Shown piece by piece: positions 1 through 8,822 of a DNA stretch of 21,709 nucleotides (position 1 is the stretch's first letter; each line of letters starts with the position of its first letter). The stretch comes from a virus (Duplodnaviria; Heunggongvirae; Uroviricota; Caudoviricetes). The position numbers were made by a program, and so were the translations under genes. Below the pieces are notes generated by a model. The model did no database searches, was not told the origin of the DNA, and worked only from the letters and a program-made list of their open reading frames with translations. The stretch lies in IMG/VR virus record IMGVR_UViG_2563366822_000014; one strand, written 5' to 3'.

Positions 1-300
1 ATGACAAAAACAGTATCAACCAGTAAAAAACCCCGTAAACAGCATTCGCCTGAATTTCGCAGTGAAGCCCTGAAGCTTGCTGAACGCATCGGTGTTACTG
101 CCGCAGCCCGTGAACTCAGCCTGTATGAATCACAGCTCTACAACTGGCGCAGTAAACAGCAAAATCAGCAGACGTCTTCTGAACGTGAACTGGAGATGTC
201 TACCGAGATTGCACGTCTCAAACGCCAGCTGGCAGAACGGGATGAAGAGCTGGCTATCCTCCAAAAGGCCGCGACATACTTCGCGAAGCGCCTGAAATGA
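1..300 (+). CDS. insE: IS3 transposase OrfA (helix-turn-helix DNA-binding subunit)
   Basis: 99-aa [56 protein letters not shown]... recognised as IS3 OrfA; leucine-zipper-like C-terminus. Confidence 0.9.
264..267 (+). other. candidate -1 programmed ribosomal frameshift site (A AAG in CCA AAA GGC) joining orfA to orfB
   Basis: A_AAG at 264-267 lies in the orfA/orfB overlap; in the orfA frame it reads CAA AAG, in the orfB frame AAA GGC. The motif is as I recall it for IS3; the downstream structure was not evaluated. Confidence 0.5.
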
Positions 301-1163
301 AGTATGTCTTTATTGAAAAACATCAGGCTGAGTTCAGCATCAAAGCAATGTGCCGCGTGCTCCGGGTGGCCCGCAGCGGCTGGTATACGTGGTGTCAGCG
401 GCGGACAAGGATAAGCACGCGTCAGCAGTTCCGCCAACACTGCGACAGCGTTGTCCTCGCGGCTTTTACCCGGTCAAAACAGCGTTACGGTGCCCCACGC
501 CTGACGGATGAACTGCGTGCTCAGGGTTACCCCTTTAACGTAAAAACCGTGGCGGCAAGCCTGCGCCGTCAGGGACTGAGGGCAAAGGCCTCCCGGAAGT
601 TCAGCCCGGTCAGCTACCGCGCACACGGCCTGCCAGTGTCAGAAAATCTGTTGGAGCAGGATTTTTACGCCAGTGGCCCGAACCAGAAGTGGGCAGGAGA
701 CATCACGTACTTACGTACAGATGAAGGCTGGCTGTATCTGGCAGTGGTCATTGACCTGTGGTCACGTGCCGTTATTGGCTGGTCAATGTCACCACGCATG
801 ACGGCGCAACTGGCCTGCGATGCCCTGCAGATGGCGCTGTGGCGGCGTAAGAGGCCCCGGAACGTTATCGTTCACACGGACCGTGGAGGCCAGTACTGTT
901 CAGCAGATTATCAGGCGCAACTGAAGCGGCATAATCTGCGTGGAAGTATGAGCGCAAAAGGTTGCTGCTACGATAATGCCTGCGTGGAAAGCTTCTTTCA
1001 TTCGCTGAAAGTGGAATGTATCCATGGAGAACACTTTATCAGCCGGGAAATAATGCGGGCAACGGTGTTTAATTATATCGAATGTGATTACAATCGGTGG
1101 CGGCGGCACAGTTGGTGTGGCGGCCTCAGTCCGGAACAATTTGAAAACCAGAACCTCGCTTAG
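297..1163 (+). CDS. insF: IS3 transposase OrfB (DDE catalytic domain), normally expressed as OrfAB fusion by -1 frameshift
   Basis: 288-aa ORF in -1 frame relative to orfA; contains DDE-type integrase motifs (..[26 protein letters not shown].., ..HTDRGGQY.., ..[10 protein letters not shown]..). Confidence 0.9.
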
Positions 1164-1193
1164 GCCTGTGTCCATATTACGTGGGTAGGATCA

Positions 1194-1354
1194 TCTTAGT
1201 TATTGATGGTAAGGTCTGGCGAACGGTGTATTACCGGTTCGCTACCAAGGAAGAACGGGAAGGAAAGGTGAGCACGAATCTGATTTTCAAGGAGTGTCGC
1301 CAGAGTGCCGCGATGAAGCGGGTGTTGGCATTTTATCGCGGCAATTTTCAATAG
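1194..1354 (+). pseudogene. ren: 3' remnant of a lambda ren-like gene truncated by the IS3 insertion
   Basis: Frame beginning at the IS3 junction translates to LVIDGKVWRTVYYRFATKEEREGKVSTNLIFKECRQSAAMKRVLAFYRGNFQ*, which matches my recollection of the C-terminus of lambda Ren (..GKVWRTVYYRFATREEREGK..SAAMKRVLA..). No start codon; the 5' part is displaced by IS3. Confidence 0.6.
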
Positions 1355-1391
1355 ACTATGTACATAAAAATATCATTTTTTTAATACATGT

Positions 1392-1583
1392 CTAATTATT
1401 GGACGAAATTGGTTTTTGCTTTGGTTTAGTTAGCCTAGCAATCAAGCCAGAGGCAATAATGATGATCCAAGCAATTTGATGCAATGCTACTCCAATATAA
1501 GAACCTTTATAGATAATAAAGGCATAGATCGCTAGAAACGAAATAAATATCCATAACGAAAGTTGATAAATTTTGGCGCGCAT
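1392..1583 (-). CDS. hypothetical small membrane protein (two predicted TM helices)
   Basis: ORF on minus strand; ATG at 1583 gives 63 aa MRAKIYQLSLWIFISFLAIYAFIIYKGSYIGVALHQIAWIIIIASGLIARLTKPKQKPISSNN with two hydrophobic stretches and a basic tail. AT-rich, weak RBS; the ORF track start (1598) is a TTG. Confidence 0.35.
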   Translation of the reverse strand: MRAKIYQLSLWIFISFLAIYAFIIYKGSYIGVALHQIAWIIIIASGLIARLTKPKQKPISSNN

Positions 1584-1839
1584 ATTTAATCCAATCAATC
1601 AGAAAGACGAGTAATCATAGAGGTACTATCACCCGGGTAACTATTGCTATTATGAACGGATAGGATAGAGGCTTCAATAACATATGCATCAAGTATGATG
1701 GAATATGTAGGTGAAAATGACTTGTGTCAAATTTGTGGAAATGAGTACCATGTTTCTCTGAAATTGATGTCGTTAATGGCTAGTGATAGTGAACTTTTTT
1801 ACTTTATAATTCCTTTGGTTATAACAATAAGGTAAATTT

Positions 1840-2400
1840 ATGAAGAAGATAATATTATTAGCCATGATTATTGGTTCTTTAACAGGTTGCGCTAGTGTGC
1901 CACCATTGAATTTTTCAACACCTAACGTGGGAGTTAGCCAGAAAAAAATAGATGCTGAAATTAAGTCATTAACGGTATCACTTGCTCGTCCAGATGAGCA
2001 GAAAGGGGATATCACTGCTGGTATGGAGGCTATAACTCCAATTTGGCGTGAATCTTTGCAGGAAGCACTCGACCGAATGACTATTTTTCGTGATAGTTCA
2101 CCAAATACGGTTAGCTTAAATGTTAAAGTGTTGGCTCTTGACGTTCCTGCTTTTGGTGTTTCAATGACAACTAAAGCAATTGCAAGGTATGAAATAATCA
2201 ACCGTGCGAATGGTGATATTATATATACGCAGGATATTGAGTCTACCGGTACTGTTCCAGCCAGTTACGCATTCTACGGTATTGTTCGAGCACGCGAATC
2301 TGTTAATCGCGCGGTGCAAAACAACATAACGCAGTTCTTGCAAGCATTAGAAAGTGTTGATCTTTCTCGTCCAATGTTTCCTGTTAGGGTAGCTAAATGA
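1840..2400 (+). CDS. putative lipoprotein (186 aa), unknown function
   Basis: N-terminal signal peptide with lipobox MKKIILLAMIIGSLTGC|AS; good spacing after an AT-rich leader; stop overlaps the next gene start (ATGA at 2397-2400). AT-rich codon usage differs from neighbouring phage genes. Confidence 0.8.
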   Translation: MKKIILLAMIIGSLTGCASVPPLNFSTPNVGVSQKKIDAEIKSLTVSLARPDEQKGDITAGMEAITPIWRESLQEALDRMTIFRDSSPNTVSLNVKVLALDVPAFGVSMTTKAIARYEIINRANGDIIYTQDIESTGTVPASYAFYGIVRARESVNRAVQNNITQFLQALESVDLSRPMFPVRVAK

Positions 2401-2849
2401 AGCGATTATTCGTAATTGCTCCACTCTTAGTGTTGGTTGGATGCGCACAAAATATATCGCCAAATAGTTATTCTGTTGGCTCTGTGGGCATGGTTAATCG
2501 AACTATCGCTGGTACAGTTATTAGTGCTAGGGGGGTTGATATCAGTGGGACTTCCGCGTTAGGCGGGACTGCTGGGGCTGCCGTGGGGGCAACCGCTGGT
2601 TCTGCGCTTGGTGGGGGAGTTCGTTCTAATATCGTTGGTGCCGTTGGTGGTGCAGTCATTGGTGGTATTGCCGGGGCAGCAATCGAATCTTCAGCAACAA
2701 AACAAACAGGCATGGAATATGTTGTCGAAACTGAGAATGGGAATTTAATGACCATTGTTCAAGGCAAAGATCCGTTATTTACTCAAGGAAGTAAGGTCCT
2801 TGTTTTATACGGAAACCCTTCTCGCATAATAACAGACCCGCGTCACTAA
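2397..2849 (+). CDS. SlyB/Pcp-like outer-membrane lipoprotein with glycine-zipper segment (150 aa)
   Basis: Lipobox LLVLVGC|AQN, followed by Gly/Ala-rich zipper (GGTAGAAVGATAGSALGGGVRSNIVGAVGGAVIGGIAGAAI) and a C-terminal beta-rich tail, the same architecture as E. coli SlyB as I recall it. Confidence 0.8.
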   Translation: MKRLFVIAPLLVLVGCAQNISPNSYSVGSVGMVNRTIAGTVISARGVDISGTSALGGTAGAAVGATAGSALGGGVRSNIVGAVGGAVIGGIAGAAIESSATKQTGMEYVVETENGNLMTIVQGKDPLFTQGSKVLVLYGNPSRIITDPRH

Positions 2850-2941
2850 CATACCTTTTGATTTTGTAAAATCAATTCGTAATAATAAAGTCATCGGAGC
2901 TTGAACAACTCCGGTGACTTCTGCGCTAAACGGGGACGTTT

Positions 2942-3043
2942 ATGCGCACATACAATCCAAACTCTCTTCTCCCTTCACAGATGCAGAAATGCACCTGCGA
3001 TTTTTTGCATCCAGCGTCTGACCTCTGCGGAGGTGAAGCGTGA
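2942..3043 (+). CDS. ylcH: small protein YlcH-like (33 aa)
   Basis: ATG at 2942 encodes [33 protein letters not shown], and the stop overlaps the ybcN GTG start; matches my recollection of the DLP12 ylcH position and size. Small ORF, so moderate confidence. Confidence 0.45.
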
Positions 3044-3495
3044 ACCTACCACAAGATGGCATCAAACTGCATCGCGGTAACTTCACCGCTATCGGCCAGC
3101 AGATCCAGCCTTATCTGGAGGACGGAAAATGCTTTCGCATGGTGCTTAAACCGTGGCGTGAGAAACGCAGTCTTTCCCAGAATGCACTCAGCCACATGTG
3201 GTACAGCGAAATCAGTGAATACCTCATCAGCAGGGGGAAATCGTTCGCTACCGCAGCATGGGTAAAAGATGCTCTCAAACACACATACCTCGGTTATGAA
3301 ACCAAGGACCTGGTTGATGTCGTAACCGGCGAAATCACTACTATCCAGTCGTTACGCCATACTTCCGATCTTGATACCGGAGAGATGTATGTCTTCCTGT
3401 GTAAGGTTGAAGCCTGGGCGATGAATATTGGCTGCCACCTGACTATTCCGCAGAGCTGCGAGTTCCAGCTGCTGCGCGACAAGCAGGAGGCGTAA
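3040..3495 (+). CDS. ybcN: NinB/Orf-family recombination mediator homolog (DLP12 YbcN-like)
   Basis: 151-aa ORF (GTG start) [61 protein letters not shown]... recognised as YbcN; position immediately upstream of ninE. Confidence 0.9.
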
Positions 3496-4444: not shown

Positions 4445-4529
4445 AGTCAGAGATAACAATCAACTAATACTGTTTTATTGATTTTTGCTTGTAATTGGCG
4501 TTCTGGTCTGATTTTTGTGGAGTAAGTTG

Positions 4530-4913
4530 ATGCGTGATATTCAGATGGTTCTTGAGCGTTGGGGAGCGTGGGCGGCTAATAATCATGAAGATGTGACCTG
4601 GTCGTCCATTGCCGCCGGTTTTAAGGGATTAATTCCTTCAAAAGTAAAATCTCGCCCGCAATGTTGTGACGATGACGCGATGATCATTTGCGGGTGCATG
4701 GCCCGTCTGAAAAAGAACAACAGCGATTTGCACGATTTATTAGTAGATTATTATGTAGTCGGTATGACATTCATGTCACTGGCAGGTAAGCATTGCTGCT
4801 CTGATGGTTATATCGGGAAAAGGTTACAAAAGGCTGAGGGCATAATTGAAGGGATGTTAATGGCATTAGATATCCGGTTAGAGATGGATATCGTTGTTAA
4901 TAACTCTAATTAA
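4530..4913 (+). CDS. quuD: late-gene antiterminator Q (DLP12 QuuD-type, 127 aa)
   Basis: ATG at 4530 gives [62 protein letters not shown]...; Cys-rich zinc-binding pattern; sits between the nin region and the lysis genes. The ORF-track TTG start at 4515 is rejected. Confidence 0.85.
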
Positions 4914-4940
4914 TACGCCAATTATTTACTAAAAGTTATT

Positions 4941-4964
4941 AAAAATGGGGCGTTGAAACGCCCC
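4941..4964 (-). terminator. intrinsic terminator-like hairpin for minus-strand transcripts (downstream of nmpC)
   Basis: Perfect 6-bp GC stem GGGGCG/CGCCCC with 6-nt loop at 4947-4964; on the minus strand it is followed by ATTTTT (4941-4946). On the plus strand it is followed by A-rich sequence, so it is not a plus-strand terminator. Confidence 0.5.
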
Positions 4965-5052
4965 CAAAAATAAAGGGTAATATATAACAGAAGGTTTGTA
5001 TAGTTAGAAGCAAGGTTGTGCTTCTAAAGGAAGTGGCTTGAGGGAGCCACTT

Positions 5053-5086
5053 ATATGTTGGGGAGGCAAAGCCTCCCACAACATAT
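5053..5086. terminator. long stem-loop immediately 3' of the nmpC stop (3' stabiliser or terminator candidate)
   Basis: About 15 bp stem (5053-5067 with 5071-5086), one bulged A, 3-nt loop; followed on the + strand by CTTTT. The strand of action is not resolvable from sequence alone. Confidence 0.4.
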
Positions 5087-5101
5087 CTTTTAGTAATCAA
5101 A

Positions 5102-6184
5102 TTAGAACTGGTAAACCATACCTACAGCAACGATATCATCGGTAGCAACGCCAGATGCTTTCGTGAAATCGCTCTTATCAATCAGGTTGATTTTGTAGTC
5201 AACAAAAGTGGACATATTTTTGTTGAAGTAATAGGTTGCACCTACATCAACATATTCAACCAGGTCCTGATCACCCCAAACACCCAAGTCTTTTCCTTTA
5301 GAATGCAGGTAAGCAACGGATGGACGCAGGCCGAAGTCGAACTGATATTGTGCAACAGCTTCGAAGTTTTGTGCTTTGTTGGCAATATGGTTATTACCAA
5401 AAACAGTCATGTTCTGGGTTTCAGAATAGGTGGTGGCCAGATAGATGTTGTTCGCATCATATTTCAGACCAGCTGCCCATACTTCAGCATTTTGACCAGA
5501 AGCATTCAGACCGTTGTTACCGTAGATAACCTGATTATTAGTGCGATCAGATTTAGCATAGGTTGCACCTACACCGAATCCTTCATACTCATAAGTAGTG
5601 GAGAAACCGAAACCATCACCATTAGCTTCAGTTACGTCAGTGCGGTCATTTTTACCCTGATACTGAGCAGCAAAGTTCAGACCATCAACCAGACCAAAGA
5701 AGTCGTTGTTACGATAAGTTGCAACACCAGTGGTGCGACCAGTCATGAACACATCTGTTTGAGTCCAAGTGTCACCACCGAATTCTGGCAGGACGTCAGT
5801 CCACGCACCGATGTCGTATGCTACACCGTAGTTACGGCCGTAATCGATGGAGCCGTAGTCACCGAATTTCAGGCCAGCGAAGGCAAGACGGGTTTTATCT
5901 TTGGAGGAACCTTGAGATTCAGCGCGGTTGCCTTTGAATTCATATTCCCACTGACCGAAACCAGTCAGTTGATCGTTGATTTGGGTTTCACCTTTGAAGC
6001 CAAGACGGGCATAAGTAGTATCACCATCATCTGCATCATTAGAGGAGAAGTAGTGCTTAGCATTAACTTTCCCGTACAGATCCAGCTTGTTACTGTCTTT
6101 ATTATAAATTTCAGCTGCCTGAGCAGACATCGCCATCAGTACTGATGCAGCTACAGCAGAAATTGCCACTGTTAATTTTTTCAT
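5102..6184 (-). CDS. nmpC: outer-membrane general porin, NmpC/OmpD type (intact, 360 aa incl. signal peptide)
   Basis: [26 protein letters not shown]|[24 protein letters not shown]... ending ...VAVGMVYQF with the classic porin C-terminal Phe; signal peptidase site AQA|AE; recognised as NmpC-like. Confidence 0.95.
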
Positions 6185-6771
6185 CGTGAGCCCTTTTTTT
6201 TGAACTATTATTAAAAAATGATGTCACTGCGCGATAAATATTCATCTAATCAATGTGATTATTTCAAGATGTAAGTTTTAGTTTCTCATTTAATTTGTGA
6301 AGTAGATCTCTATTTTTATCTGAACTTTTTCTATCGAAACCTATTTATGGCTCTTATTTGAACAAAAATAAACCTATTAGCTAATTTATATTAATGGCTG
6401 TTATTTATGGGGGGCTATAATTCGATGGTTTAATTTAAATTAACTAAAAATAACGCCGGAAATTATTTATTGGTTATTTGTTGAGGTTTTCTTATGTATT
6501 TGTGGTGGTGTTTTGAACACTCGGTAGCATTCTCATAAATATCATTCAGTGGTTTACGTACGTAAAAAATTGGTTATGCTGTTAAGAGTGGTTACTTCGT
6601 CACACAGCTTAAACCCGCCGTCGAGCTGGTTTTTCCATTTTTTGAGTCTCGATATTAGCTGATAACTCAATACCTGAGTTATTCACTGACTCCGAGTCTG
6701 TTACGTTTCTGCTTTTTTGCGATACGTTGTATTCCCTCAATTTACACCCGCTTTGTCTGCGAGGTGGGGTT
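6185..6771. promoter_or_regulatory. 587-bp AT-rich non-coding region: nmpC promoter/5'UTR (minus strand) and leader of the lysis operon (plus strand)
   Basis: No ORF over about 17 codons; strongly AT-rich with A/T tracts and short palindromes (6431-6444 ttaatttaaattaa; 6559-6568 tacgtacgta; 8-bp inverted repeat ataactca/tgagttat around 6664-6684). Promoter elements are not confidently placed. Confidence 0.5.
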
Positions 6772-6987
6772 ATGAAATCCATGGATAAGTTAACAACGGG
6801 TGTCGCCTATGGCACCTCAGCAGGTAGTGCCGGTTACTGGTTTTTACAGCTGCTCGATAAAGTCACGCCCTCACAGTGGGCAGCAATAGGTGTGCTGGGT
6901 AGCCTGGTATTTGGCCTGCTGACGTACCTGACAAACCTTTATTTCAAGATTAAAGAAGATAAGCGCAAGGCTGCGAGAGGTGAATAA
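6772..6987 (+). CDS. essD: class II holin / pinholin (S21-like) with dual-start motif
   Basis: ATG at 6772 gives 71 aa [71 protein letters not shown]; Met1-Lys2-Ser3-Met4 dual start, two TM segments, charged C-terminus. The ORF-track TTG start at 6727 is rejected. Confidence 0.9.
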
Positions 6988-7484
6988 TGCCTCCATCATT
7001 ACGAAAAGCCGTTGCTGCTGCTATTGGTGGCGGAGCAATTGCTATAGCATCAGTGTTAATCACTGGCCCAAGTGGTAACGATGGTCTGGAAGGTGTCAGC
7101 TACATACCATACAAAGATATTGTTGGTGTATGGACCGTATGTCACGGGCATACAGGAAAAGACATCATGCTCGGTAAAACGTATACCAAAGCAGAATGCA
7201 AAGCACTCTTGAATAAAGACCTTGCCACTGTCGCCAGACAAATTAACCCATACATCGAAGTCGATATACCGGAAACAACGCGCGGCGCTCTTTACTCATT
7301 CGTTTACAACGTGGGTGCTGGCAATTTCAGAACATCGACGCTTCTTCGCAAAATAAACCAGGGCGATATCAAAGGCGCATGTGATCAGTTACGTCGCTGG
7401 ACATATGCTGGCGGTAAGCAATGGAAAGGTCTCATGACTCGTCGTGAGATTGAGCGTGAAATCTGTTTGTGGGGTCAGCAATGA
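6987..7484 (+). CDS. rrrD: SAR endolysin (T4-lysozyme-type muramidase, R21-like)
   Basis: 165-aa ORF; N-terminal Gly/Ala-rich weakly hydrophobic signal-anchor-release segment ([20 protein letters not shown]), then E35 ... D44 ... T50 spacing typical of the lysozyme catalytic triad; start overlaps the holin stop. Confidence 0.95.
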
Positions 7485-7942
7485 ACAGAGTAACCGCGAT
7501 TATCTCCGCTCTGGTTATCTGCATCATCGTCTGCCTGTCATGGGCTGTTAATCATTACCGTGATAACGCCATTACCTATAAAGCCCAGCGCGACAAAAAT
7601 GCCAAAGAACTGAAGCTGGCGAACGCGGCAATTACTGACATGCAGATGCGTCAGCGTGATGTTGCTGCGCTCGATGCAAAATACACGAAGGAGTTAGCTG
7701 ATGCGAAAGCTGAAAATGATGCTCTGCGTGATGATGTTGCCGCTGGTCGTCGTCGGTTGCACATCAAAGCAGTCTGTCAGTCAGTGCGTGAAGCCACCAC
7801 CGCCTCCGGCGTGGATAATGCAGCCTCCCCCCGACTGGCAGACACCGCTGAACAGGATTATTTCACCCTCAGAGAGAGGCTGATCACTATGCAAAAACAA
7901 CTGGAAGGAACCCAGAAGTATATTAATGAGCAGCGCAGATAG
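7481..7942 (+). CDS. rzpD: i-spanin (Rz-like inner-membrane spanin)
   Basis: ATG at 7481 overlapping the rrrD stop; [55 protein letters not shown]... with N-terminal TM and coiled-coil periplasmic domain. Confidence 0.9.
7701..7883 (+). CDS. rzoD: o-spanin (Rz1-like outer-membrane lipoprotein) embedded in +1 frame within rzpD
   Basis: 60-aa [23 protein letters not shown]|[40 protein letters not shown] with lipobox and proline-rich body, entirely inside the Rz gene in another frame. Confidence 0.85.
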
Positions 7943-7943
7943 A

Positions 7944-7965
7944 GCTGCCCATATCGATGGGCAAC
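7944..7965. terminator. hairpin between convergent rzpD and borD
   Basis: Inverted repeat around tgcccat-atcg-atgggca (about 8-9 bp stem) in the 31-bp gap between the two convergent stops; no strong T-run, so it may be a bidirectional or stabilising structure. Confidence 0.4.
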
Positions 7966-7973
7966 TCATGCAA

Positions 7974-8267
7974 TTATTGTGAGCAATACACACGCGCTTC
8001 CAGCGGAGTATAAATGCCTAAAGTAATAAAACCGAGCAATCCATTTACGAATGTTTGCTGGGTTTCTGTTTTAACAACATTTTCTGCGCCGCCACAAATT
8101 TTGGCTGCATCAACAGTTTTCTCCTGTCCAATTCCCGAAACGAAGAAGTGATGGGTGATGGTTTCCTTTGGTGTTACTGCTGTCGGTTTGTTTCCAACAG
8201 TAAACGTCTGTTGAGCACATCCTGTAATAAGCATTGCCAGAGCGGCAGAAAACAACATTTTTTTCAT
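7974..8267 (-). CDS. borD: Bor lipoprotein (serum-resistance, Iss-family)
   Basis: ATG at 8267 gives 97 aa MKKMLFSAALAMLITGC|AQQTFTVGNKPTAVTPKETITHHFFVSGIGQEKTVDAAKICGGAENVVKTETQQTFVNGLLGFITLGIYTPLEARVYCSQ; lipobox; lambda-like position after the spanins on the opposite strand. The ORF-track start at 8315 is rejected. Confidence 0.9.
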   Translation of the reverse strand: MKKMLFSAALAMLITGCAQQTFTVGNKPTAVTPKETITHHFFVSGIGQEKTVDAAKICGGAENVVKTETQQTFVNGLLGFITLGIYTPLEARVYCSQ

Positions 8268-8627
8268 CTTATTATCCTGCATTGTTAAAAACGGCAGAAT
8301 CCTATGTGACAACAATTAAACGATAGTTAAATGGATTGATGAAAATTAAAACTATATAGGTGGATGCTCAGCCTATTGGAGGAGGGGGGGCACTCAGAAT
8401 CCTGTGGAATGAAATAAACCGCTCTATCTGTCCATTACCCTTTTAGCTGCGCTGTATCGTCGCCGTATTCCCGCATTAACCATGACCGTAGCCCGACGGG
8501 GAATTCCTTCTGCGTGAGTGTGCGGGAATAATCAAAAACGATGCACACCGGGTTTTACTGTGCTGACAGACGCAGGGTTACCCTCATAGTCGCTTTTCCG
8601 GTGCGATGGTGGAAGAAACCGGGATGT

Positions 8628-8822
8628 TCATCCATCATCACTTTGGATTGATGTATATGCTCTCTTTTCTGACGTTAGTCTCCGACGGCAGGCTTCAATG
8701 ACCCAGGCTGAGAAATTCCCAGACCCTTTTTGCTCAAGAGCGATGTTAATTTGTTCAATCATTTGGTTAGGAAAGCGGATGTTGCGGGTTGTTGTTCTGC
8801 GGGTTCTGTTCTTCGTTGACAT
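8628..8822 (-). CDS. small ribbon-helix-helix-like (Arc/MetJ/TraY-type) protein, 64 aa
   Basis: MSTKNRTRRTTTRNIRFPNQMIEQINIALEQKGSGNFSAWVIEACRRRLTSEKRAYTSIQSDDG: basic N-terminus, the pattern R..IRFP...IE.I compatible with a beta-strand-helix-helix DNA-binding fold; DNA matches my recollection of the extreme right end of lambda. Confidence 0.55.
   Translation of the reverse strand: MSTKNRTRRTTTRNIRFPNQMIEQINIALEQKGSGNFSAWVIEACRRRLTSEKRAYTSIQSDDG

Follow-up and report, generated by a model that had tools for sequence, protein, structure and literature searches.

A co-inherited pair of lipoprotein genes, one of them SlyB-like, in the AT-rich cargo segment of a DLP12-like prophage

The 21,709 nucleotides (nt) of the IMG/VR virus record IMGVR_UViG_2563366822_000014, referred to below as the window, were identified by open reading frame (ORF) calling and by comparison with an annotated prophage as a DLP12-like lambdoid prophage. 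Between the remnant of ren and the ylcH-ybcN genes this prophage contains an AT-rich segment which is horizontally acquired cargo (a moron) in a variable slot, and which includes an operon of two lipoprotein genes encoding products of 186 and 150 amino acids (aa). The two lipoprotein genes form a unit of their own, are inherited together and are subject to purifying selection. Judged from its sequence, the 150-aa protein is a full-length paralogue of SlyB, and the 186-aa protein models as an outer-membrane lipoprotein of the LptE/PqiC/PelC type. The identity and the architecture of the operon proteins are put forward with high confidence, and the explanation as a whole, a cargo operon coding for a membrane-stabilising pair, is given a probability of about 0.55.

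Composition, boundaries and distribution of the cargo segment

The segment had been described in an initial annotation, made from the letters of the window, as AT-rich in comparison with the flanking genes, and calculation of the windowed GC content bore this out. The GC content of positions 1330-2855 is 0.397 against a window mean of 0.519 (standard deviation 0.065 for windows of the same size), which places the segment in the lowest 0.7% of such windows. Both the small minus-strand gene and the spacer at 1599-1839 have a value of 0.33, and the 186-aa gene has one of 0.405. The 150-aa gene, at 0.47, owes its higher value to Gly and Ala codons; its GC content at third codon positions (GC3) is only 0.34. 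In the segment GC3 is 0.30-0.34, as opposed to 0.57-0.67 for ybcN, rusA and the terminase and presumed portal genes; the Q gene, with a GC3 of 0.47, lies below the other backbone genes.

The boundaries were deduced from megablast searches of the flanks and of the segment against 5426 complete E. coli genomes. The homology of the flanks, common to thousands of E. coli prophages, breaks off within the final codons of ren at about 1329 and restarts at about 2856, 6-9 nt past the stop codon of the 150-aa gene; the cargo therefore comprises approximately positions 1330-2855, and the end proposed initially, 2940, lies some 85 nt too far, within the conserved backbone. Most DLP12-like prophages do not contain this segment. 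In the DLP12 prophage of strain K-12 the same slot is occupied by renD::IS3 followed by emrE, ylcJ, ybcK, ybcL and ybcM, and then by ylcH-ybcN, so that the slot exchanges cargo, and the statement in the initial annotation that K-12 carries emrE and ybcKLM at this place was correct. The segment is thus inserted between conserved backbone genes, is replaced in related phages and deviates in composition, as morons do, and the earlier suggestion of horizontal acquisition is upheld by the breakpoints, the composition and the alternative contents in K-12.

The whole segment was found in 280 of the 5426 genomes (5.2%), always on the chromosome and always with at least 99% identity, so that in E. coli it is represented by one near-identical haplotype; the carriers include the enteroaggregative strain 042. 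A search of 72,556 plasmids gave no match, and the only deposited phage genome found to carry the segment was the complete genome of Escherichia phage PhiR30_1 (host recorded as E. coli C), the lipoproteins of which are 100% identical to those described here. In nearly all 280 genomes both lipoprotein reading frames have remained intact. Insertion sequences (IS) occur within the segment in some E. coli strains, including NZ_CP098858.1, NZ_CP025913.1 and their relatives; in some strains an IS5 element apparently breaks the 186-aa gene at about window position 2110, and IS3 is found elsewhere within 1193-3100. Such interrupted copies would be natural knock-outs.

These data bear on the idea that the operon is mere passenger DNA, residing in a permissive slot with no benefit in E. 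coli and maybe silenced because of its AT-richness. A single haplotype, the IS insertions and the want of a convincing promoter or terminator would be in keeping with a passenger; however, the reading frames have stayed open in nearly every carrier, purifying selection between lineages is strong and capture at three or more positions in unrelated phages, independently each time, is hard to explain without a benefit, which renders the idea very unlikely. A cargo operon whose products are of use to the lysogen is the reading followed below.

The lipoprotein operon and its products

Relatives of the 186-aa protein were sought in one genome per species (76 loci) and in the viral contigs of IMG/VR (40 loci). 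The 150-aa gene was found directly downstream at 70 of the 76 genome loci, in all 21 contigs of the E. coli type and in 14 of the 19 other viral contigs, and in E. coli and K. oxytoca the two genes overlap by the stop/start sequence ATGA, which suggests translational coupling. When the ORFs within about 5-6 kb of the match were clustered over the genome loci, two shared real families emerged, present at 73 and 70 loci; the other real families near the operon reached at most about 8 loci each, and the few clusters that exceeded this consisted of antisense shadows of the lipoprotein genes. When the nearest genes on either side were scanned against Pfam at about 55 loci, 130 families were returned, mostly ordinary metabolic ones and none of them more than twice. 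Neither the clustering nor the scan of neighbours revealed a third conserved gene or a conserved genomic context around the operon. The initial annotation had named as a ground for doubt that the proteins might be well-characterised housekeeping lipoproteins in a conserved non-phage context; most homologues do lie in ordinary non-phage chromosomal neighbourhoods, but these are not conserved, and the pair is uncharacterised.

The hosts, as read from record titles, belong to the Enterobacterales, Xanthomonadaceae, Alcaligenaceae, Comamonadaceae, Acetobacteraceae, Rhodospirillales and Sphingomonadaceae, and the operon thus occurs in Alpha-, Beta- and Gammaproteobacteria, a few records being titled Chthoniobacteraceae and Desulfobulbaceae. 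Among the best 120 matches listed, identity to the E. coli copies is at least 59% for the 186-aa protein and at least 63% for the 150-aa protein. The matrices of pairwise identity of the two proteins are correlated (r = 0.82, Mantel p = 0.001, 88 distinct pairs). Comparison of the lipoprotein genes with the copies of Klebsiella oxytoca and of the Pantoea type gave proportions of non-synonymous differences (pN) of 0.10-0.19, those of synonymous differences (pS) being saturated at 0.72-0.87.

Temperate phages carry the operon at three or more genome positions and have captured it several times. It was found between the tape-measure gene and a gpM-like minor tail gene in a lambda-like siphovirus of Pantoea-type hosts, directly after the gpA-type terminase gene in a high-GC phage, and within a lambdoid prophage of Salmonella, where it lies in the early region surrounded by toxin-antitoxin modules. 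In the Salmonella enterica prophage (L132/L133, about 4700-8800) these modules are ParE/PaaA2, PemK/MazE-like and YoeB/Phd, and a gene for a HigB-like toxin follows about 2.5 kb further on; the upstream lipoprotein gene of L132 was called at only 107 aa and may be truncated. The DNA upstream of the Klebsiella, Edaphovirga, Serratia and viral copies gave no alignment and no conserved regulatory DNA, and the mobile unit therefore consists essentially of the two coding sequences.

The SlyB-like character of the 150-aa protein, already noticed in the initial annotation, extends over its full length. Residues 2-149 were aligned by phmmer with residues 3-155 of the SlyB in PDB 7OJF (E = 1.3e-14), hhalign returned a probability of 98.9% over 149 columns, and BLASTP identity to E. 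coli SlyB is 33%. The protein begins with MKRLFVIAPLLVLVGC; across 27 homologues Cys16 does not vary and Gly15 is conserved to at least 90%. The AlphaFold2 (AF2) model contains a strand (35-50), two helices (55-71 and 75-101) and strands within 102-146, and its sole significant PDB match in a Foldseek search was 7OJF_A (E = 1e-8, template modelling (TM) score about 0.5), an entry with the title SlyB13-BamA. Many members of the family carry PF13488 or PF05433 in precomputed annotations. Taken together, the data point to an outer-membrane lipoprotein with a glycine-zipper hairpin set in a small beta domain, a SlyB paralogue over its full length, and to a new subfamily of SlyB lipoproteins.

The AF2 model of the 186-aa protein (predicted local distance difference test (pLDDT) score of 86) shows two helices packed on an antiparallel beta sheet with a lipid anchor, and it is this alpha/beta arrangement that models as the LptE/PqiC/PelC-type fold of outer-membrane lipoproteins; sequence identity in the structural alignments to such folds is 7-15%. 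The lipobox Cys is invariant in both lipoprotein families and neither has Asp at position +2, so that, by the E. coli sorting rule, both proteins should reach the outer membrane.

A fold of this kind could also be taken as a sign of lipid handling. The 186-aa protein might then behave like the PqiC/DUF330 docking lipoproteins or the lipopolysaccharide (LPS)-binding LptE, while the SlyB-like protein corrals mislocalised phospholipid, the pair helping to keep the lipid asymmetry of the outer membrane. Although the match to the DUF330/PqiC fold agrees with such a role, at none of the loci does the operon have MCE, PqiAB or Mla genes as linked neighbours, and the 186-aa protein matched no Pfam lipoprotein family, the LptE and DUF330/PqiC-type families included; we consider it quite unlikely. 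Much the same low probability is assigned to the possibility that the two lipoproteins rebuild, in split form, the architecture of TraT, that is, an LptE-fold core with two helices spanning the outer membrane, assembled into a decameric ring, and so confer serum resistance or the exclusion of conjugation or phages. The architectural likeness may arise simply because many outer-membrane lipoproteins adopt an LptE-like fold; TraT shows no similarity in sequence, no TraT family was matched in Pfam, DUF330, PelC and LptE all give better fold matches, and the helical hairpin clearly belongs to the SlyB type. The preferred reading remains a SlyB-like protein with a partner lipoprotein that together stabilise the membrane.

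Database records name the 186-aa protein 'UDP-N-acetylglucosamine acyltransferase', 'YajG family lipoprotein' or 'hypothetical'. The first name, carried by many NCBI and UniRef records across genera, is a propagated misannotation: no hexapeptide or LpxA domain is present, and the model is an alpha/beta lipoprotein and not the left-handed beta-helix of an LpxA-type acyltransferase. The second name, given in more recent records by the NCBI pipeline, found no support in the sequence. No match to PF03923 (Lipoprotein_16) was obtained at E<=1, whereas E. coli YajG scores 3.4e-52; the NCBIfam model PRK11627 (itself named 'hypothetical protein') gave 11.4 bits against a cut-off of 242; and hhalign aligned the protein with YajG over 53 columns, covering the signal peptide and first strand only, with a probability of 75%.

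The C-terminal tail of the 186-aa family is modelled with low confidence and is presumably disordered, and it bears a conserved K/R-P-M-F-P motif (RPMFP in the window). Wherever a SlyB-like gene adjoins the 186-aa gene, the motif is kept (82 of 82 distinct sequences), and in all 10 sequences that have no such neighbour it is lost or mutated (Fisher's exact p = 1.4e-13 for 92 distinct sequences, a statistic that ignores phylogeny). The ten sequences comprise records titled Photorhabdus, Budvicia, Brachymonas and Lampropedia, one betaproteobacterial assembly and four viral-contig sequences. Such a pattern is as expected if the tail is the docking site for the SlyB-like partner, as it probably is, correlation not being proof.

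Two of the viral contigs without the SlyB-like gene, L118 (8001-8851) and L119 (7971-9042), have in its place a gene for another small protein, of 95 and 143 aa, respectively, with an N-terminal hydrophobic, signal-peptide-like segment, which hints at partner swapping. In Photorhabdus caribbeanensis (L052, 7268-8049) a regular DNA repeat array lies about 0.7 kb downstream of the partner-less 186-aa gene; its translations repeat 'VHCRTGSLE' and 'FLSCLYGSE', and it looks like a CRISPR array.

The small membrane protein gene and the prophage backbone

The three ORFs of the segment, one on the minus and two on the plus strand, are where the initial annotation had placed them, but its view of three envelope proteins as a single module had to be abandoned. 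The comparison of gene neighbourhoods that it had recommended as a check confirmed the joint travel of the two lipoprotein genes and not that of the small gene, which was absent from the non-E. coli copies of the operon in the genome loci and the IMG/VR contigs and a homologue of which stands alone elsewhere. The homologues begin at the sequence MRAK, corresponding to the internal ATG at 1583, so that the real product probably has 63 aa. The family is small, a HMMER scan of 1.84 billion cluster representatives having returned only 4 related ones. The closest relative, the only one for which the context was looked at, is 50% identical and occupies the same slot of another lambdoid prophage, with the O/P replication genes on one side and the nin genes on the other; it runs antisense to the early operon and has no lipoprotein genes nearby. 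This homologue (L127, 5001-5183) adjoins a gene whose product is a DNA polymerase III theta-like protein (PF06440). It would seem that a small antisense moron recurs at the replication/nin junction. For the small gene pN is 0.32 and pS 0.72. It is an independent moron of lambdoid phages that does not belong to the lipoprotein operon, and since it is confined to the E. coli copies and its homologue occurs alone elsewhere, the segment consists of two independent insertions.

The remaining features of the window are collected in Table 1. As the initial annotation had stated, ren is interrupted by IS3, orfA and orfB occupying 1-1163 and the match to intact ren beginning at 1193. The IS3-ren junction (1050-1450) resembles renD::IS3C of K-12; its combination with the lipoprotein cargo was found in 0 of the 5426 complete E. 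coli genomes (at least 80% coverage of 1050-1450 required), and the combination present in the window is unsampled or recombinant. On the 3' side of the cargo the order is ylcH, ybcN, ninE, ybcO, rusA and Q. The lysis genes lie in the porin-Bor part of the window, and further on there are Nu1, a gpA-type terminase gene and large ORFs which, by analogy, may be the portal and head/tail genes. The prophage porin, encoded downstream of Q, is intact (360 aa, Porin_1, E = 3e-152), and the adjoining stretch 6150-6600 is the most AT-rich of the first 8 kb profiled (GC 0.27-0.30). With the two lipoproteins, the porin and Bor, this prophage encodes four accessory proteins directed to the outer membrane.

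Table 1. Positions of the features of the cargo segment and of the surrounding prophage genes in the window.
Feature	Position	Strand	Basis or remark
IS3 element inserted in ren	1-1192	+	left end cut by window start; context, outside module
IS3 orfA	1-300	+	ORF calling
IS3 orfB	297-1163	+	ORF calling
ren 3' fragment	1193-1354	+	match to intact-ren prophages begins at 1193
Variable AT-rich cargo segment (1526 bp)	1330-2855		ren / ylcH-ybcN slot of DLP12-like prophages
Gene of small membrane protein with two hydrophobic helices	1392-1598	-	ORF; 68 aa from TTG 1598
AT-rich divergent spacer	1599-1839		GC 0.33, promoter-like sites
186-aa lipoprotein gene	1840-2400	+	lipobox LTGC, Ala at +2
150-aa SlyB paralogue gene	2397-2849	+	lipobox LVGC, glycine zipper
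Conserved backbone resuming (ylcH leader, ylcH, ybcN)	2856-3495	+	context
ylcH	2942-3043	+	
ybcN	3040-3495	+	
Q	4515-4913		
Intact porin gene	5102-6184	-	
Bor	7974-8315	-	

Possible function and comparison with known systems

SlyB is reported to form oligomeric rings (SlyB13 in the title of 7OJF) which, under envelope stress, enclose lipid nanodomains together with outer-membrane proteins such as BamA (bioRxiv 10.64898/2025.12.22.696046, which summarises cryo-EM work on SlyB). By homology, the glycine-zipper hairpin of the 150-aa protein would enter the outer membrane, and the protein would assemble into rings that enclose patches of membrane. The strict synteny, the co-divergence and the distribution of the tail motif suggest that the 186-aa lipoprotein would be a dedicated partner or client, probably docking through its disordered C-terminal PMFP tail. 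As the pair occurs in very different hosts without linked genes, we infer that it acts on generic components of the outer membrane, which could be lipids, LPS or widely conserved proteins such as BamA and LptD. A complex expressed from the prophage might then stabilise or remodel the outer membrane of the lysogen, with tolerance of detergents, chelators, cationic peptides or serum as the result, and would count as a lysogenic-conversion function of the sort represented by Bor and the porin that this prophage also encodes. This functional model, an outer-membrane stabilising or remodelling complex from which the lysogen benefits, is tentative, its chances being somewhat below even.

Several observations weigh against this reading. 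The AF2 model of the 150-aa protein is of moderate confidence (pLDDT 66), and its score against PF05433 (Rick_17kDa_Anti), a short domain of low complexity, is 21.1 bits (E = 3e-4), below the gathering score of 24.2. The case for a physical interaction is built on synteny and on the tail-motif correlation, in which phylogeny is ignored, and no fusion of the two lipoprotein families was seen among the matches listed. Ten lineages retain the 186-aa gene without a SlyB-like gene, and it can therefore function, or at least persist, alone. The promoter-like sites in the spacer, GTGATA-16-TATAAT on the plus strand (1783-1810; 10 of 12 bases agree; 30 nt ahead of the start codon at 1840) and TTGAAG-17-CATAAT on the minus strand (1677-1649), are bare consensus matches, no commoner than in shuffled sequence, and no convincing terminator-like site was found just after 2849. 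A PhoP box (TGTTTA-N5-TGTTTA, three mismatches at most) is missing from 1599-1839, so that the regulation of E. coli slyB cannot be assumed for the operon; over the whole window, the matches to this box are not above chance.

Cor and Llp block FhuA, and a similar task, superinfection exclusion, could be envisaged here, in which a SlyB-like ring guided by the 186-aa lipoprotein would enclose or block a phage receptor such as BamA, LptD or a porin. The operon has been taken up repeatedly, and at different positions, by temperate phages; SlyB in its solved form encloses BamA (according to the title of 7OJF); the partner is folded like LptE, which plugs LptD; LptDE is bound by certain receptor-binding proteins of phages (PDB 9RPW); and phage-encoded outer-membrane lipoproteins that exclude phages are established, as exemplified by Llp of T5 (bioRxiv 10.64898/2026.03.26.714494). 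Nevertheless, the distribution of the operon is mainly chromosomal, its neighbours in the species-level genome scan being mostly metabolic and of families seen at most twice, and identities of about 60% across bacterial classes with low pN are unlike those of fast-evolving exclusion factors matched to receptors. A scan with PADLOC for defence systems gave 0 matches, and the lipoproteins have no similarity to the Cor, Llp and Bor families; in the Pfam scan Bor was not matched, only lipobox and glycine-zipper matches below threshold being returned. Exclusion is accordingly regarded as unlikely.

Both lipoproteins fall into PHROG families (12521 and 13877) of 'unknown function', and literature searches found no publication describing the operon, a paper on orf6/orf10 of phiv142-3 concerning other genes. 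The earlier statement that no characterised system is recognisable in the segment thus stands.

Returning to the membrane-stabilising pair, it is tempting to speculate that it constitutes a self-mobile outer-membrane machine, in which a ring of SlyB-type hairpins lies around, or is capped by, a ring of LptE-fold proteins recruited via the PMFP tail. The arrangement is doubtful; if it were true, it would be a two-gene counterpart of TraT, able to set up a membrane nanodomain in any proteobacterial host and used by phages to harden or mask the surface of the lysogen. According to a recent proposal, the formation of nanodomains is how SlyB-type glycine-zipper lipoproteins preserve the outer membrane, and a SlyB paralogue with an obligate, co-evolving partner would extend this biology; with only two genes and easily transferred, the pair would lend itself to studies of the assembly, targeting or loading of such rings. 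For phage biology, it represents a likely lysogenic-conversion function in about 5% of complete E. coli genomes. To our knowledge, the SlyB-type glycine-zipper lipoproteins studied so far all act as single genes; the obligate pairing of the SlyB-type paralogue with an LptE-fold lipoprotein and the mobility of the pair are new features.

The 186-aa protein shares with YajG a similar length, its lipoprotein nature and probably a related alpha/beta fold. Both YajG and SlyB of E. coli co-purify with LptDE (PMC12065857). Unlike the genes of the LptE, PqiC (DUF330, XCC0632), PelC and CsgG lipoproteins, the 186-aa gene is not linked to lptD, pqiAB, pel or csg at the 76 loci, and its product differs from these proteins in a conserved N-terminal tether, PPLNFSVPNVG, as well as in the PMFP tail. 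TraT, the surface-exclusion and complement-resistance lipoprotein of IncF plasmids, is a single polypeptide, whereas two genes and a hairpin of the SlyB type are present here. Bor, Cor and Llp resemble the pair in being small phage-encoded lipoproteins that change the host surface, Bor being encoded by this very prophage; they are, however, single genes largely confined to phages, in contrast to a two-gene bacterial operon which is found mostly outside phages and shows no family relationship to them.

The closest comparison is that with SlyB itself (PDB 7OJF/7OJG). Common to both are the lipobox, the beta strand, the predicted glycine zipper of two helices, whose turn contains a conserved Arg, and the beta domain at the C-terminus. 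The 150-aa proteins differ from SlyB as a distinct and much more conserved subfamily (at least 63% identity among the best 120 matches listed), characterised by the conserved motifs ISPNxYSVGSVG... in the N-terminal and LYGSPSRIIADPR in the C-terminal part. The slyB gene of E. coli has no partner gene upstream, where anmK is found on the opposite strand, and slyA is adjacent to it; and while slyB of E. coli and Salmonella is regulated by PhoPQ, the 150-aa gene is mobile, is carried by phages and is not preceded by a PhoP box.

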